The translations under genes were made by a program, and so were the position numbers. This document shows positions 2,742-36,617 of a DNA stretch of 64,000 bases, one piece after another (position 1 is the stretch's first letter; each line of letters begins with the position of its first letter). This DNA comes from a virus: positions 1 through 64,000 of the IMG/VR virus record IMGVR_UViG_3300032116_000067; one strand, written 5' to 3'. The notes beneath the pieces are model-generated. The model saw nothing but the letters and a program-made list of their open reading frames with translations, was not told the origin of the DNA and did not search any database.

Positions 2742-5498
2742 TTATACTACAATTGCTAATGCTTTCCATCCGTTTGCGTTCGTATAGATCCAGAGACCTT
2801 CGTTTCCATCACTTTGATATACAACTAGTCCCACAGCTGGGCTAGTAATTGCTGCTCTTTGTGTTGCTGTCATCCGAGGCGGTAAGAAACCCTGGGTGGT
2901 AGATGTAATGTCAAGTTTTGCTGAAGCTACAGGCGATGCCGTTCCTATGCCGACATTGCCCGCTGATGTAATCGTCATTTTTCTCGTCATCGGACCACCA
3001 CTCACTCGCGTCCAAAAACTTAATGTACCAGCAGTGTTGTTTTCTGTACTATTTTCTTTGAGTCCGGCAATAGTCGCAAAATTGCTTACGCTTGTTCCGG
3101 CATTGTTTGTTCCACCGCCTAATGTTATTTGGGCACCCCTATCTATTGACTGAGCAGCGTTAGTATAAAATGCCGCATGCGCCTCTCCTGAACTTGGGTC
3201 TCTTACTACAGTCGTTCTGACATCTAGTCTTTCTGTAGGTGCTGTAGTACCTACACCCATATTACCGCTAGCATCTATCCTGACCCTCTCGGTAACATCA
3301 CTGGCTGAAAGCCTTGTACCAAACGTAAGAGCACTACTTGCGCTTCCTGTCCAAACACTAGATATTGTTGCAGCAGCTAAGCTAGAGTCTGCACCCATAG
3401 CATCAAGTCTTAATGTGGCTGCTATGTTATTTGTAACTCCATTGTTTGCTATATAGGTAGTAGTTCCAGAGGTGAGGGTATTGGTAGATACGTATGCTGT
3501 GGTGTTGTTGGAGACAACGTGAAGTTTTGCGCCGGGAGTCAATGTACCAATACCAACATTCCCCACTCCTCCAGAGTTAATGGTTATATTACCACTAACT
3601 CTTTCAAGAAGCATTGTGGAGTTGTTATTCCCGAGCTGAATATCGTAATCATTCGTGGATGTCAAGTAACCTCCAGACGTACCTAGTATTGTTTCAAAAG
3701 CAATGGTTGACCTATTTGCAAGTCTAAGCGTTTTGGTTGCGACAGTCGTGGTTCCAATACTTACGCCACCGCTTGTGGCAGCCAAGACACCTCCTGTGGT
3801 GTTGTATATAGCCCCCACCACCTGTAACCTATAATCGCCATAGTCTGTTGCTCCAGTGTTTATACCTACACGACCGTTAGCGAAGATGCGGAGACGTTCT
3901 GTTCCGTTGGTATAGAACGATTGAAAATATGCTCCACCACTTACGCCTGCCGCAATCCTCATTTCCGCTGTCCCATAATTAACGGACATAAACGCACGTT
4001 CCGCATAACTCGCTGCTGAAGGTCTAAATGATATTTTTGATGTCCCGTCTCCGCTATCGTCAATCGTAAATGTCGCAGAACTTGCACGAAGATGCAAAAT
4101 GGATGCAGGTGATGCCGTACCGATACCCACATCACCACTTGCAGTAATACGCATACGTTCAATAGCAGATGTAAAGAACCTTGCAGGTGTAGCTTCTGCG
4201 TTGTAAAAAAATGCATCATTGCCTGAGTTGATACCAACAAACAGACCATCAGCAGCTGTCGTTCCGCTGTTTGTATTCTGAAAAAACATGAACGCTTCAC
4301 CAGTACCCGTACTGCGGATGCGCGGATAGACGTTTGTAGAGCCAGCAATATCTAAGACGCTACCAGATACAGGGCTTGAAGTTCCTATAGCTACTAGTCC
4401 ACCAGCCAAGTTAATCAACACCGATCCACCGCCGCCAATATTGGTACCATAGCCGTCTGGGTCTATTACTACGCGGTCAGACGTATTCCGGCCAATTATC
4501 GAAAGGTTTGCGGTGTTTGCAGCATTTCGACTGGATAAATAATAAGCGTTAGACAGATTTATGTTTCCGATACTAACGTCCAATTTTGCCGTTGGACTTG
4601 AGGTTCCTACACCAACACTTGTACCGTTATCAAAGATCTGACTATCACCCACAGCAGAAGCTGAAGTGAATTTAGCCACTCTATTTACTGTACCACTAAT
4701 ACTAGTAGAGTTAGCTGGAGTGTATCCTAAGATAGTAGAAATACTAGCATTCTTCCAAAGATTAGTAGGACCATCTCTATAAAGAAAGTGTTTGTCACCA
4801 ACATCTGTGATTAAAACATTATGTAGTTCTTCAAGCTCATAACCGTTTTGAACCTTTACAAAAATTTCACCATTATTTTGTTGCACACGTGTAACAACAC
4901 CTATAAACACCGTATGAACTGGTGCAACAGGTTTATTAATAAGTCCGTATAACAATGTACCATTTGGACCTAACCAAACGGGATCACCTGCCACCGCACT
5001 ATTAGTATTTAAGCCACCTAGTAAACCTTCTGTCACTACAAACACTATATCATTTGTAGCTCCTCCGGTTACCAATAAACCAAGAGTTTTACTAGAAGTT
5101 GCTTCACTAGTATTAGATGCAGGACTAACTATCATGTTAGTTCCTGATTGACCGGTACTACCACTTACATAAACTGGAGTGCCCACTGTCATTGCGGACG
5201 CCAGTTTTACAAGATGTCTTACATTAGAAGTGTAGTTATCTATCCACTCTGCATTATAATTAGTGGCATCAATTTTTGCAAGTATTTGACCTGCTGTTCC
5301 ACCAGGAGGTAAACCAGCTGCGGCAGCTGCTGCACCTATATCAGAAAGCATTTGAGTTCCGGTGCGATACTTTACTACACCAGAATCAATTACTAAAAAC
5401 TTATCGGTATCTATAGTAGCATTAGCTACGTTATTCAGCGTAACTACGCCGTCAACTACTAAACCGGCTTTTGCTAGTATATCTGATAAGTGCCTCAT
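2742..5498 (-). CDS. Tail fibre protein (918 aa, GNVGIGT modules, C-terminal GFLPPRMT motif)
   Basis: Repeated G[VI]GT..P...LD[VI] modules; Gly/Thr/Ser-rich; GFLPPRMTATQR motif typical of Bacteroidota phage fibres. Confidence 0.85.
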   Translation of the reverse strand: MRHLSDILAKAGLVVDGVVTLNNVANATIDTDKFLVIDSGVVKYRTGTQMLSDIGAAAAAAGLPPGGTAGQILAKIDATNYNAEWIDNYTSNVRHLVKLASAMTVGTPVYVSGSTGQSGTNMIVSPASNTSEATSSKTLGLLVTGGATNDIVFVVTEGLLGGLNTNSAVAGDPVWLGPNGTLLYGLINKPVAPVHTVFIGVVTRVQQNNGEIFVKVQNGYELEELHNVLITDVGDKHFLYRDGPTNLWKNASISTILGYTPANSTSISGTVNRVAKFTSASAVGDSQIFDNGTSVGVGTSSPTAKLDVSIGNINLSNAYYLSSRNAANTANLSIIGRNTSDRVVIDPDGYGTNIGGGGSVLINLAGGLVAIGTSSPVSGSVLDIAGSTNVYPRIRSTGTGEAFMFFQNTNSGTTAADGLFVGINSGNDAFFYNAEATPARFFTSAIERMRITASGDVGIGTASPASILHLRASSATFTIDDSGDGTSKISFRPSAASYAERAFMSVNYGTAEMRIAAGVSGGAYFQSFYTNGTERLRIFANGRVGINTGATDYGDYRLQVVGAIYNTTGGVLAATSGGVSIGTTTVATKTLRLANRSTIAFETILGTSGGYLTSTNDYDIQLGNNNSTMLLERVSGNITINSGGVGNVGIGTLTPGAKLHVVSNNTTAYVSTNTLTSGTTTYIANNGVTNNIAATLRLDAMGADSSLAAATISSVWTGSASSALTFGTRLSASDVTERVRIDASGNMGVGTTAPTERLDVRTTVVRDPSSGEAHAAFYTNAAQSIDRGAQITLGGGTNNAGTSVSNFATIAGLKENSTENNTAGTLSFWTRVSGGPMTRKMTITSAGNVGIGTASPVASAKLDITSTTQGFLPPRMTATQRAAITSPAVGLVVYQSDGNEGLWIYTNANGWKALAIVV

Positions 5499-29297: not shown

Positions 29298-29654
29298 CTC
29301 AAAGGTTTAAACTCTCCAAATTTACTTATAGAACTGTAGAGGTTTCAAGGTAAGTTATCAACCAGAGTGTGTAAAACGTACAAAGACGCCTGTTATGGTA
29401 TAAGGTGCTGTAGAATAGATTTTTACCGGTGAGATAGTTGCCTAGTTACCAAATGGTAACTATCCCCCCGGGTACTTAGTTCTACAGGTAGTCCCCCGGT
29501 CGTTTCTCCAGGATAACTACCCCCTCCTTGTCTACGGTAAGAAAAGTGTGCACCACGGTAACAGAACTAGTGCGTGTTGGAGGGTGTGATGGATGCCCCA
29601 ACCAACCACCCCTCCGAAATTCTTGGCGGATATAACCCCCCGCCACATACAGCC

Positions 29655-29954
29655 ATGAGCGCATTCTTCATTGGCGGAAACGCAACGCTGCAGGCGGCAG
29701 CATTCAATCCGCATCCCACGTCAGAAAACGTACTCGTTGTCACGTTCACAAACGGCAGCAAAGCACTCGTGACCAAAGCCCTTGACAAGGGCTACGTCGT
29801 CGAGGCAAAGGACGACCAGGGTCGTCCAGGGCTGCTGCCCGCATTCATCGACCTAGAAACCGGGTTCCTGCGCCCGGGCTTCGAAGTCAGAAGTATCAGC
29901 GGTACGCCGTGGATACAGAAGACCGGCAACGGCGGCGGCCTGAAACTCCCATAA
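29655..29954 (+). CDS. Hypothetical protein, GC-rich, first rightward gene
   Basis: MSAFFIGG...; hairpin overlapping the stop codon. Confidence 0.6.
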   Translation: MSAFFIGGNATLQAAAFNPHPTSENVLVVTFTNGSKALVTKALDKGYVVEAKDDQGRPGLLPAFIDLETGFLRPGFEVRSISGTPWIQKTGNGGGLKLP

Positions 29955-30035
29955 GGGAGTTTCGGCCTTTTTAGCAGGTCACCTTCCAAGGAGGTCAGCA
30001 GGTTCTTTATTTGTTCACCCTTTAAACTAACGATC

Positions 30036-30182
30036 ATGCGGAGTAAGTCTCTCATGTTTCGTACCTGGGAACTCTTCCGTAGCTGGTACGCCGCTACTAA
30101 GAAGAGATTCGTGACACTGAAGCTTACGTTTGTACGCTTCACGCCCGGGTACAGTCAAGTCTTTATCACAGTTACCTACTAA
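30036..30182 (+). CDS. Small hypothetical protein (48 aa)
   Basis: MRSKSLMFRTW...VTY, preceded by an A-rich leader. Confidence 0.4.
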   Translation: MRSKSLMFRTWELFRSWYAATKKRFVTLKLTFVRFTPGYSQVFITVTY

Positions 30183-30728
30183 AAAGTAGTGTAACTCGTT
30201 GATAATCAGGTGTGTATGTGATTGGTAGGAACACGTACACACCTTTTTCTCTTTCTCTCCTACCTCTTAATCCGCTCTATTTGACGCGGATAAGATCGCT
30301 ATATATTCTTTACGGTTGATAAACCGTGACAAGCCTGTGGGGCTACGATGTTGTTCTCTCATATAAGGGTGAGAGTATCAAGCAGAGGTTAATTCCTTTC
30401 TCTGTAATGACACGTTAGTGCAGACTTTAAAACCAGGCAGTCTACTTATTGTACGGTGTTGGGTACGTATGATGAGAGACTTTAAAGTGTGGTAACACAC
30501 ACAGTCCAACTTTGTAGACATAAAACCACTTGTCTACTTTCTCCTAGGTTTGTGGTAAACCTAAAAACATTAGGGTTCTGGTAACACTTGTTTACCGACC
30601 CGGCCCTATCAGTTGACATGGAGATGTTAGCTATGCACTAGGCGGTGTGTAGTTCTGATATGGGTTTAAAACTAAAAACAAGGGGGCTAGCCACCCCCGA
30701 AGTCCTCACCAAAAAAAAAACTATTGTT

Positions 30729-30983
30729 ATGAGTCTAGATTACTTAGAGCCTTTCATGGCTCAGTCCGTAGTTAAAGAAACCGCACGGGGAACCCGTAGG
30801 TATTTTCCTATTACAGCCAAGCGTAAGCGTGGCTGGAAATGGCTATACCAAACGTTTTTCATAATCTATGGTAGGGAACCCAAAGAGCGTGCGGAAGTTG
30901 GGTTTGCTATCCTGTCTCAATCTCTTGACAAGTATGTTGAGAGGTTTGACGGTAAGCTGTGGGTACGCACCGTTGCTGTCTAA
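30729..30983 (+). CDS. Hypothetical protein
   Basis: A-rich leader; terminator at 30993-31030. Confidence 0.6.
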   Translation: MSLDYLEPFMAQSVVKETARGTRRYFPITAKRKRGWKWLYQTFFIIYGREPKERAEVGFAILSQSLDKYVERFDGKLWVRTVAV

Positions 30984-30992
30984 ACGTCTTAT

Positions 30993-31030
30993 TGGTGAAC
31001 TGGACTCTTAGGAGTCTGGTTCACCTTTTT
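30993..31030 (+). terminator. Intrinsic terminator
   Basis: ggtgaactggactc/gagtctggttcacc stem plus U-tract. Confidence 0.75.
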
Positions 31031-31053
31031 GTTTACTCTTAAATCCTTTGTAA

Positions 31054-31278
31054 GTGACCAAACAGGAAGCTATGGATAAGACCGTTAGAAGGTTTACGAA
31101 CCTCCTTGACGGTAAGATCCTCTCCGGGGTTTCTGTTAGTACTGTTATAGAGTACTATGAAGCACTTATGAGAGGTGTAAGAGTCCACCCGCCCGCCAGA
31201 ACAATGGGTGGTATTGAGCAGAACTTCTTCAATGATCAGATCTCTGCCATAGAAGAAGATCTTTACGATAGTAACTAA
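31054..31278 (+). CDS. Hypothetical protein
   Basis: ORF track. Confidence 0.5.
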   Translation: MTKQEAMDKTVRRFTNLLDGKILSGVSVSTVIEYYEALMRGVRVHPPARTMGGIEQNFFNDQISAIEEDLYDSN

Positions 31279-31397
31279 CTGCGTCAGATGTAAATAACCG
31301 CCGGGGAGTTTTTGACCTTTGCACTCTAGGCACAATACGGTTTACATACTTAGCATATAGTGATATATGCTTTGAGGGGGTTTCTGAACGCTAAGCA

Positions 31398-31550
31398 AAG
31401 TTGTAATGCACCATAACTCACTTCCCAAGGGTGAGCAGTTGTAATGTGTAATGTATTAAGCCAAGTCATGCTTGTATTGAACAGTGTGTTCCACATTAAC
31501 AAGGTAATACCTTGAGTCTTTACCATTACAACTGAGTGCAGAGGGACCTC
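31398..31550 (+). ncRNA. Twister-ribozyme-like RNA with long P5 insertion
   Basis: UAA-UGCA-CC...CUCAC-UUCCCAAGG-GUGAG-[CAGUUGUAAUG...CAUUACAACUG]-A-GUGCA-GAGGG; P1 weak. Confidence 0.65.
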
Positions 31551-31682
31551 TTAACCCGTGAAGAGTATTACACGGGAGTTAATCCGAGTAACCCGAAAAA
31601 GGGTGCATCTATAGTCCTCGGAGAGTCAGAACAGGGATGTTGGGTCTGACACTTTTTTCTTTCTCAATCAATTCATCACTAT

Positions 31683-31895
31683 ATGGGATTACACAAAGAT
31701 GAGGGAGAACCTGCCGCGGCTTTAGCCGAAGAGTGCGGTGAAGTAATCCAGATCATCTCCAAGCTCTATAGGTTTGGAGGTAACTGGAACGAAGTACCAC
31801 CTGGTAAGACCCATACCAGGTTTGAGGAGTTAGAGAGTGAAATGCAAGATCTGCTCTATCAGTGGGAAAGATTGAAGAAGGAACGCTCTCAGTAG
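31683..31895 (+). CDS. MazG-like NTP pyrophosphohydrolase
   Basis: LAEECGEVIQ..SK..RFG...LE.E..DL acidic motif. Confidence 0.7.
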   Translation: MGLHKDEGEPAAALAEECGEVIQIISKLYRFGGNWNEVPPGKTHTRFEELESEMQDLLYQWERLKKERSQ

Positions 31896-32137
31896 CGTTC
31901 TTTCTTTATTTTTGTGTTTTTAACACACCATTCTCACGTGGACATGAAGACTTCTCATGATGAATTCAAGCAGGATAATCTCTCACAGTAATGTGTATGG
32001 AGATAGAATGTGTCCTAGTTCGGTACAGTTGAAAGACTGTATTAAGCGGATAATTTGTCTAAAAGATGTGAAACCACACTGATTAGAAAATTGGTAGAAA
32101 TACCAAAGGGAAATGTCAAACCACATGCCCTAATCAG

Positions 32138-32300
32138 TTTCCCAAGAGTGAGCAGTTGTAATACCGATGTGAAAATTGAAACATATTTTCTTTGAGGTGT
32201 AACCTATGGAAAAATAGAAGTAAAAACACTAAGAGTAGTTTCACAAACTATGCTCAAAACGTGTATAATATGTCTATGTATTACAACTGAGTGTGGAGGG
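32138..32300 (+). ncRNA. Partial second copy of the twister-like element
   Basis: ttcccaagagtgagcagttgtaat...attacaactgagtgtggaggg; no canonical 5' cleavage strand found. Confidence 0.4.
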
Positions 32301-32566
32301 GAAAACCAGAGTAGTAGAGCGCAAAACCTGGGTGAGCCTTACGGTTCATGAAAAACGCACAGGTCTCTGGTCTTTTTTGTCATTAAAGATTTTCAAATAG
32401 CTAGCACAGTGTGTTGTCCGAACATCTCACCACAGGACTATACTGTTAAAAAACCAGCCACTGTATCCCACAGGGAGGCGTGGAGGTGTAGGGCTTCAAC
32501 CTGCCAAACGGTACAGAGGGGGTAACCAGTCCTCTCTTTTTTTTGTCACCAATCAATCATCATCAT

Positions 32567-36492: not shown

Positions 36493-36617
36493 AGTCAGGT
36501 GGCGAAATTGGTAGACGCGAGTGGTGTGTTAAATGTGGGAATAGACATAATCCCTAACCCTATAAAAAGGGCTGACCGCTTGTCTCTTAGTTGCAGGTTC
36601 GATTCCTGTCCTGACTG
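36493..36617 (+). ncRNA. tRNA-like RNA 2 (anticodon loop replaced by two hairpins)
   Basis: agtcagg/cctgact; Leu-type D-arm tggcgaaattggtagacgc; T-arm gcagg-TTCGATT-cctgt. Confidence 0.7.

Follow-up and report, generated by a model that had tools for sequence, protein, structure and literature searches.

In a phage-derived sequence, viral record IMGVR_UViG_3300032116_000067, a stretch of about 150 bases raises two questions: whether it encodes a self-cleaving twister RNA and, if so, whether its cleavage can be switched on and off. The window analyzed here is the whole 64,000-nt stretch, positions 1 to 64,000 of that record, and all coordinates refer to it. A preliminary description had proposed a twister-like element with a long P5 stem and a built-in alternative pairing, situated upstream of a MazG-like gene. 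The UAA, P2, P4, L4, the pseudoknots T1 and T2, and the 11-bp P5 stem with its 77 enclosed nucleotides are all present where that description had placed them (Table 1). From its structural hallmarks and from its relatives, the stretch very probably encodes a genuine self-cutting twister RNA.

Table 1. Positions of the twister-like element, its parts and the neighboring features in the window.
Feature	Position	Strand	Remarks
Hatchet ribozyme	30306-30438	+	RF02678, 78.1 bits (gathering score 51), E 2.1e-14; precedes the twister by ~1 kb
Upstream module M	31282-31392	+	~110-nt three-way-junction RNA starting just after a stop codon; in 13 viral contigs
P1 5' strand position, AAGUUG	31398-31403	+	No proper partner after GAGGG; final bases of the M tail and first part of the 10-mer
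Cleavage strand, UAA	31404-31406	+	AA almost invariant in the family; base 5' of the predicted cut varies (U, C or A)
P2 5' strand, UGCA	31407-31410	+	Pairs with UGCA 31537-31540; adjoins the cleavage strand
L2 dinucleotide CC, T2 5' half	31411-31412	+	Pairs with G31430 and G31429
P4 hairpin	31417-31435	+	CUCAC 31417-31421, L4 UUCCCAAGG 31422-31430, GUGAG 31431-31435
P5	31436-31534	+	11-bp stem, 31436-31446 with 31524-31534; 77-nt insert 31447-31523 with three small hairpins
3' core, A-G-UGCA-GAGGG	31535-31545	+	P2 3' strand 31537-31540, G31541, A31542, T1 3' strand G31543-G31545
Module X	31546-31658	+	Structured 31546-31651, hairpin 31625-31650, U-run 31653-31658; before the MazG-like ORF
MazG-like ORF	31683-31895		MazG Pfam E 4.6e-4, just under the cut-off
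Solo twister 5'-half fragment, UUAACACACCAUUCUCAC	31920-31937	+	Direct repeat of 31402-31421
Degenerate second twister-like copy	32116-32307	+	R1 21.4 bits, E 0.0011

The scissile phosphate of the predicted structure is followed by the conserved adenine, A31405. T1 joins CCC 31424-31426, in L4, to GGG 31543-31545, inside GAGGG. Directly 3' of P2 stand G31541, the candidate general base, and A31542, which are invariant or nearly so in an alignment of 62 sequences. The L4 7-mer of the window, UCCCAAG, is the rice twister P4/L4 sequence quoted in PMC11662667. An unconstrained minimum-free-energy (MFE) fold recovered P2, P4 and P5; the native nested fold is this MFE fold, with pair probabilities of 0.81-0.83 for P2 and 0.98-1.0 for P4 and P5. 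The element thus has the N-AA step cut after N, the four-pair P2, P4/L4, T1, T2 and the G-A of a type-P1 twister, while the closing stem P1 is not formed in the window copy. Because P1 is the one structural feature lacking and the rest match the published type-P1 definition, we would file the element as a twister by its architecture. A minus-strand ORF overlapping it (31350-31526, 58 aa) is not credible, given the RNA-type compensatory changes described below and the hypervariable insert.

Both the occurrence of twisters in phage and metagenome sequences and P5 as an optional stem are already known. The order of parts in the family described here is that of type-P1 twisters such as rice Osa-1-4 and env22 (reviewed in PMC5408937 and assayed on a large scale in PMC11662667): P1, the N-AA step, P2, L2, P4/L4, an optional P5, P2', G-A, the T1 strand and P1'. 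The likeness extends to the four-pair P2, the 3-bp T1, the 2-bp T2 and the base 5' of the cut, which is likewise variable in known twisters (PMC5408937), as well as to an intergenic position close to other ribozymes and phage genes. By contrast, P3, found in ∼80% of known twisters (PMC5408937), is absent from the window element and from the family. Published examples of P5 are few and mostly accompanied by P0 or P3, whereas P5 stands alone in this family and is large, at 99 nt in the window. L4 has one extra U relative to the known twister, and P1 is often weak or absent in the family. Finally, the L2 dinucleotide is a conserved GC in known twisters (PMC5408937), and T2 is GC/GC in published twisters as opposed to CC/GG here. 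Relative to the rice sequence this amounts to a compensatory change of G-C to C-G (PMC5408937, PMC11662667), and CC fits the 'NC' descriptor of PMC11662667.

The preliminary description had offered a match to the Rfam twister models as a check, and this check was negative. At gathering thresholds, Rfam found no twister in the window; the only matches were the Hatchet ribozyme and one tRNA. Twister families gave no match at E ≤ 10 on untrimmed 31000-31900. Nor did RF03160, RF03154 or RF02684 match, at E ≤ 10, any relative tested, including minimal ones of 62-79 nt and the short-P5 relatives L043 (40 nt), L201 (13 nt) and L236 (10 nt); the searches with minimal copies (P5 of 10-13 nt) used windows of 81-181 nt. 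The models probably miss the family because P3 is absent, P5 is added and T2 is changed, and we read the result as a limit of the models rather than as a refutation of a twister. A blastn search of 30200-32200 against a phage collection returned no match. The tRNA hit (36493-36617, + strand, 37.3 bits) spans 125 nt for a model of 71 positions and is therefore a tRNA-like gene with a large internal insert.

Relatives of the element were found by way of the MazG-like neighbor, which pointed to two related contigs carrying the same element upstream, with compensatory changes in P4 and P2. Two pattern scans of IMG/VR loci raised the number of distinct copies known from public viral contigs to at least 163, and the window copy agrees with the family consensus at every core position. 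Covariation was evaluated in the 62-sequence alignment with 500 shuffles and slid partners as controls. The predicted partners were paired in 90.1% of cells, as compared with 81.3% in the shuffles and 30-48% for slid partners, and the covariation score was 0.286 versus 0.127; none of the 500 shuffles attained 0.286. All five P4 pairs covary, with 99.4% of cells paired. P2 is 99% paired and has three pairs with changes on both sides, including C-G to U-A and A-U to G-C. Changes on both sides also occur at all six P1 positions and at three distal P5 pairs; the search pattern prescribed the first eight pairs of P5, which are therefore uninformative for covariation.

The pseudoknots were followed in a model-based alignment of 95 matches. 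T1 carries two independent compensatory double changes at two different pairs: C-G to U-A in L147 (7445-7609), where UUUCCAAGG accompanies GAGGA, and C-G to A-U in L156 (3221-3401), where UUCACAAGG accompanies GAGUG. No single-sided change in T1 was seen in the intact copies of this alignment. The T2 pairs are CG in 85 and 92 of the 95 rows; six rows have a UG wobble, and no compensatory change in T2 occurs within these rows. A covariance model, R1, built from 26 short-P5 relatives and excluding the window, scored 31392-31557 at 72.2 bits (E 8.6e-19). The twister layout of the window is far beyond chance. Overall, the compensatory changes in P1, P2, P4, P5 and T1 indicate selection on RNA structure, beyond identity at the DNA level. 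The fold of a twister-type RNA with a long P5, as originally described, is thus backed by covariation among at least 163 copies.

A poor P1 and a long P5, as in the window copy, are normal for this phage twister family. As the preliminary description had noted, P1 pairs poorly: two of its six positions pair, just one of them contiguous with the junction, so that the stem is essentially absent. At most one contiguous P1 pair is also found in 65 of the 163 family copies listed. P1 is phylogenetically conserved in known twisters, yet it is reported to be dispensable for cleavage (PMC5408937; PMC11662667). According to published work, P5 is well tolerated. P5 ranges from 13 to 288 nt across the family copies listed, with a median of ∼85 nt, so the 99 nt of the window P5, whose arms are 100% complementary, is typical. 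The inserts are hypervariable: 157 of them fell into 131 clusters, and that of the window is a singleton. With P5 unspecified in the search pattern, ∼60% of copies began P5 with CAGUUGUA, and the remaining stems were different and self-complementary, down to a 13-nt hairpin. Since copies lacking CAGUUGUA carry other self-complementary stems, P5 is an ordinary covarying stem, as illustrated under the unconstrained search by CAAUUACAAG/CUUGUAAUUG and by CCGC/GCGG.

Of 99 family copies, 98 are intergenic, and ORFs on the same strand lie much closer to them than those on the opposite strand (median distance to the next ORF start, 205 versus 844 nt). Bacterial genomes yielded 120 pattern matches, of which three were real copies, all on contigs from metagenome-assembled genomes (one bacterium, Sediminibacterium and Phycisphaerales); the others were at chance level. 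Many viral contigs hold two to four copies within 1-2 kb, together with truncated or internally deleted ones. Such arrays were observed in L206 (four copies), L065/L214 (three) and L196, L210, L147, L156, L192 and L181 (two each), and some of their copies have lost the P2 5' strand together with part of L4 through internal deletion; 5' halves fused to unrelated 3' sequence also occur. Some copies are not under selection, as is evident from decayed ones in the same genomes. In the window, the degenerate copy has the same P5 base and GGAGGG, lacks UAA, and has a broken P4, an L4 ending in GA and a different insert of ∼130 nt; no further twister copy was found in the rest of the genome.

Two further observations concern individual family members. 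In L065, which is the same contig as L214, positions 4367-4761 have a GOLLD-like match (RF02032, E 2.8e-25) at 100.8 bits, below the gathering score of 150; a twister core (4759-4848) begins ∼10 nt after this match, and two more twisters lie within 1.1 kb. In L132 and L089, GAGGGG of the T1 strand can, by eye, be paired with UCCCC further downstream, which precedes a U-run. Such a hairpin would be terminator-like and would compete with T1 in these few members.

Immediately upstream of the window twister lies module M, for which Rfam has no match. The contigs that carry M include L177, L064, L344, L345, L033, L339, L338 and L340, among others. Its consensus fold is accompanied by compensatory changes; the closing helix ACAUCAAC/GUUGAUGU becomes GCGUCAGA/UCUG-A-ACGC in the window, base for base. 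The 3' tail of M, ...AGCAAAG (31394-31400), runs into the ribozyme, and the four bases that end it are GUUG, GUAG, GUCG or GUUA, depending on the homologue. Directly 3' of M there is a twister in five loci and a Hatchet ribozyme in five others (79-82 bits in Rfam). In the remaining M loci, ∼100 nt precede a twister in two and a solo twister fragment is present in one. Twister and Hatchet both start at the same M junction, and in an alignment position 1 of the M-linked Hatchet coincides with the start of the Hatchet in the window, which sits in a largely ORF-poor stretch (∼29340-30645).

Hatchet (RF02678; PMC6561176) resembles the twister in occupying the same slot directly after M, in five contigs, and in having its cleavage site at the 5' edge of the motif. 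It differs from the twister in its unrelated fold and conserved nucleotides, and it is recognized by Rfam. That two unrelated ribozymes cutting at their 5' edges occupy one slot argues that selection acts on cutting at the M junction. The arrangement of these loci points to cutting at that junction as the function.

We conclude with considerable confidence that the element represents a constitutive type-P1 twister belonging to a phage-borne subfamily that lacks P3 and has an expanded P5. Cleavage would very likely occur between U31404 and A31405, as judged from the structural hallmarks and the family covariation, including the compensatory changes in T1. According to this model, the + strand transcript would fold into P2-P4-P5 with T1 (C31424-26/G31543-45) and T2 (C31411-12/G31429-30). 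The backbone would then be cut at the predicted site, with G31541 acting as the general base and A31405 as the general acid, as in known twisters. This cut would free an upstream RNA comprising a small ORF and M and ending in a 2',3'-cyclic phosphate. The downstream RNA would bear a 5'-OH and keep the folded ribozyme at its 5' end, followed by X. We infer catalysis, the site of cleavage and the purpose, namely an RNA end defined at the boundary between M and the ribozyme, from sequence. No RNA repair or ligase genes (RtcB, RNA_ligase) were found in this record, which is estimated to be 77% complete.

A role in processing the transcript upstream of the MazG-like gene, as initially suggested, is plausible; the suggestion was incomplete in that X, ∼105 nt with a hairpin and U-run, intervenes. 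The MazG-like gene would be included in the downstream RNA if the hairpin and U-run were read through. The conserved ∼105 nt of X are 78% identical to L345 8768-8877. Because this homologue is without the U-run and is placed elsewhere, upstream of M, a terminator role for X is uncertain. Reviews hold that cuts of this kind may split polycistronic transcripts into pieces that differ in stability or translation, and we infer such a purpose here. Further downstream, a recurrent motif consisting of a T-run, GTCA(C/T) and an AATC/AAAG-like sequence precedes small genes starting in TATATGG (window 32372-32385 and 32535-32560; L001 ∼2715-2745; L002 ∼2715-2742). In this phage group, the motif may act as a terminator/promoter or as a translation-start module.

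A broader reading of the locus is that of a modular system in which M needs a self-cleaving ribozyme, twister or Hatchet, at its 3' side. The ribozyme would generate either the exact 3' end of M, with its 2',3'-cyclic phosphate, or the 5' end of the RNA that follows, and the repeated cores would in addition serve as joints for swapping cassettes such as the MazG-like gene. We put this forward as a tentative possibility, and one we consider rather unlikely as a whole.

The joints might also be the primary role. According to this explanation, which we judge improbable, the repeated twister cores provide homology for cassette swaps at the DNA level, and RNA cleavage is secondary. Repeats 31402-31421 and 31920-31937 bracket a block of ∼500 nt comprising the rest of the twister, X and the MazG-like gene. 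L345 is without this block and jumps from window position 31414 to 31918 at the repeat, which suggests gain or loss of a cassette by recombination between ribozyme repeats. Homology breakpoints at ribozyme ends and the many contigs with multiple copies and fragments fit the same explanation. However, the bracketed block is a single indel, the compensatory changes in P1, P2, P4, P5 and T1 reflect selection on RNA structure, and the roles of cutting and recombination can coexist.

It is quite improbable, in our assessment, that the element is a non-catalytic twister-shaped scaffold, displaying a variable P5 'cargo' or having another structural role, or else a decaying relic. Hypervariable P5 inserts around a nearly invariant core would suit a scaffold, and the frequency of truncated and deleted copies, the degenerate copy 570 nt downstream, and the lack of P1 and of an Rfam match in the window would suit either. 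Nevertheless, the invariant positions are those that catalysis needs (the A 3' of the cut, G-A, T1, T2 and L4). They are lost in clearly decayed copies, whereas the window copy fits the consensus throughout its core. Moreover, a scaffold role would not predict the replacement of the twister at the junction by Hatchet, which has another fold and the same chemistry.

The switch itself was proposed on the strength of a 10-mer, AGTTGTAATG, which occurs at 31399-31408 and again at 31437-31446. The repeat is real, and the P5 3' strand therefore complements its first copy at 100% as well. In principle, then, 31524-31533 could pair with 31399-31408 instead of with the P5 5' strand and hold the ribozyme off until some signal or the timing of transcription released it. 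Inhibition of twisters by their flanks and by P0 stems has been reported (PMC11662667), and one relative, L182, has a 9-nt match. Among the 163 copies listed, however, the window is the single maximum, and the repeat is peculiar to it. A match of 4-5 nt is typical because UAAUG is common to the core and to many P5 stems. The best alternative fold has −39.5 kcal/mol versus −48.1 kcal/mol for the native fold, 8.6 worse even with the tertiary pseudoknots T1 and T2 uncounted, and the alternative pairs have probabilities of ∼0. Although transcribed later, the competing P5 5' strand is closer, which favors the native stem. In addition, the upstream copy of the 10-mer is the end of M, and bases −4 to −1 vary among M homologues; as this tail is variable and belongs to M, the 10-mer is a chance overlap of the M tail with the core UAAUG. 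The 10-mer repeat is incidental and the apparent on/off switch is a coincidence of neighboring sequences; a switchable twister is accordingly the least credible of the explanations, and we regard it as highly improbable.

Inhibition by flanking sequence was also considered more generally. The upstream 10-mer and 31316-31326 could each pair with ribozyme strands, as in P0- or flank-inhibited twisters (PMC11662667 and its reference 53). Unlike in those systems, neither pairing is conserved in the family or enriched over a downstream control, and the alternative fold is much less stable. A conserved upstream 'anti-ribozyme' (31316-31326 with 31534-31544, 11 bp) was rejected, as upstream complementarity equalled that of the downstream control in 155 copies; the complementarity between these two segments occurs only in loci with M. 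The idea that the upstream 10-mer is left over from a second twister in tandem on that side was likewise rejected, the local alignment score of 25 being equalled by 40 of 300 shuffles.

The window thus contributes one more well-supported copy to a large branch of twisters, confined to phages, that Rfam's three twister models miss. Since these models miss the family, phage annotation pipelines overlook the predicted cut sites. The absence of riboswitch-like control avoids a false lead. The interchange of twister and Hatchet after M is the part worth following, as it gives a concrete context for the unsolved question of what ribozymes do in phages: they may define RNA ends.
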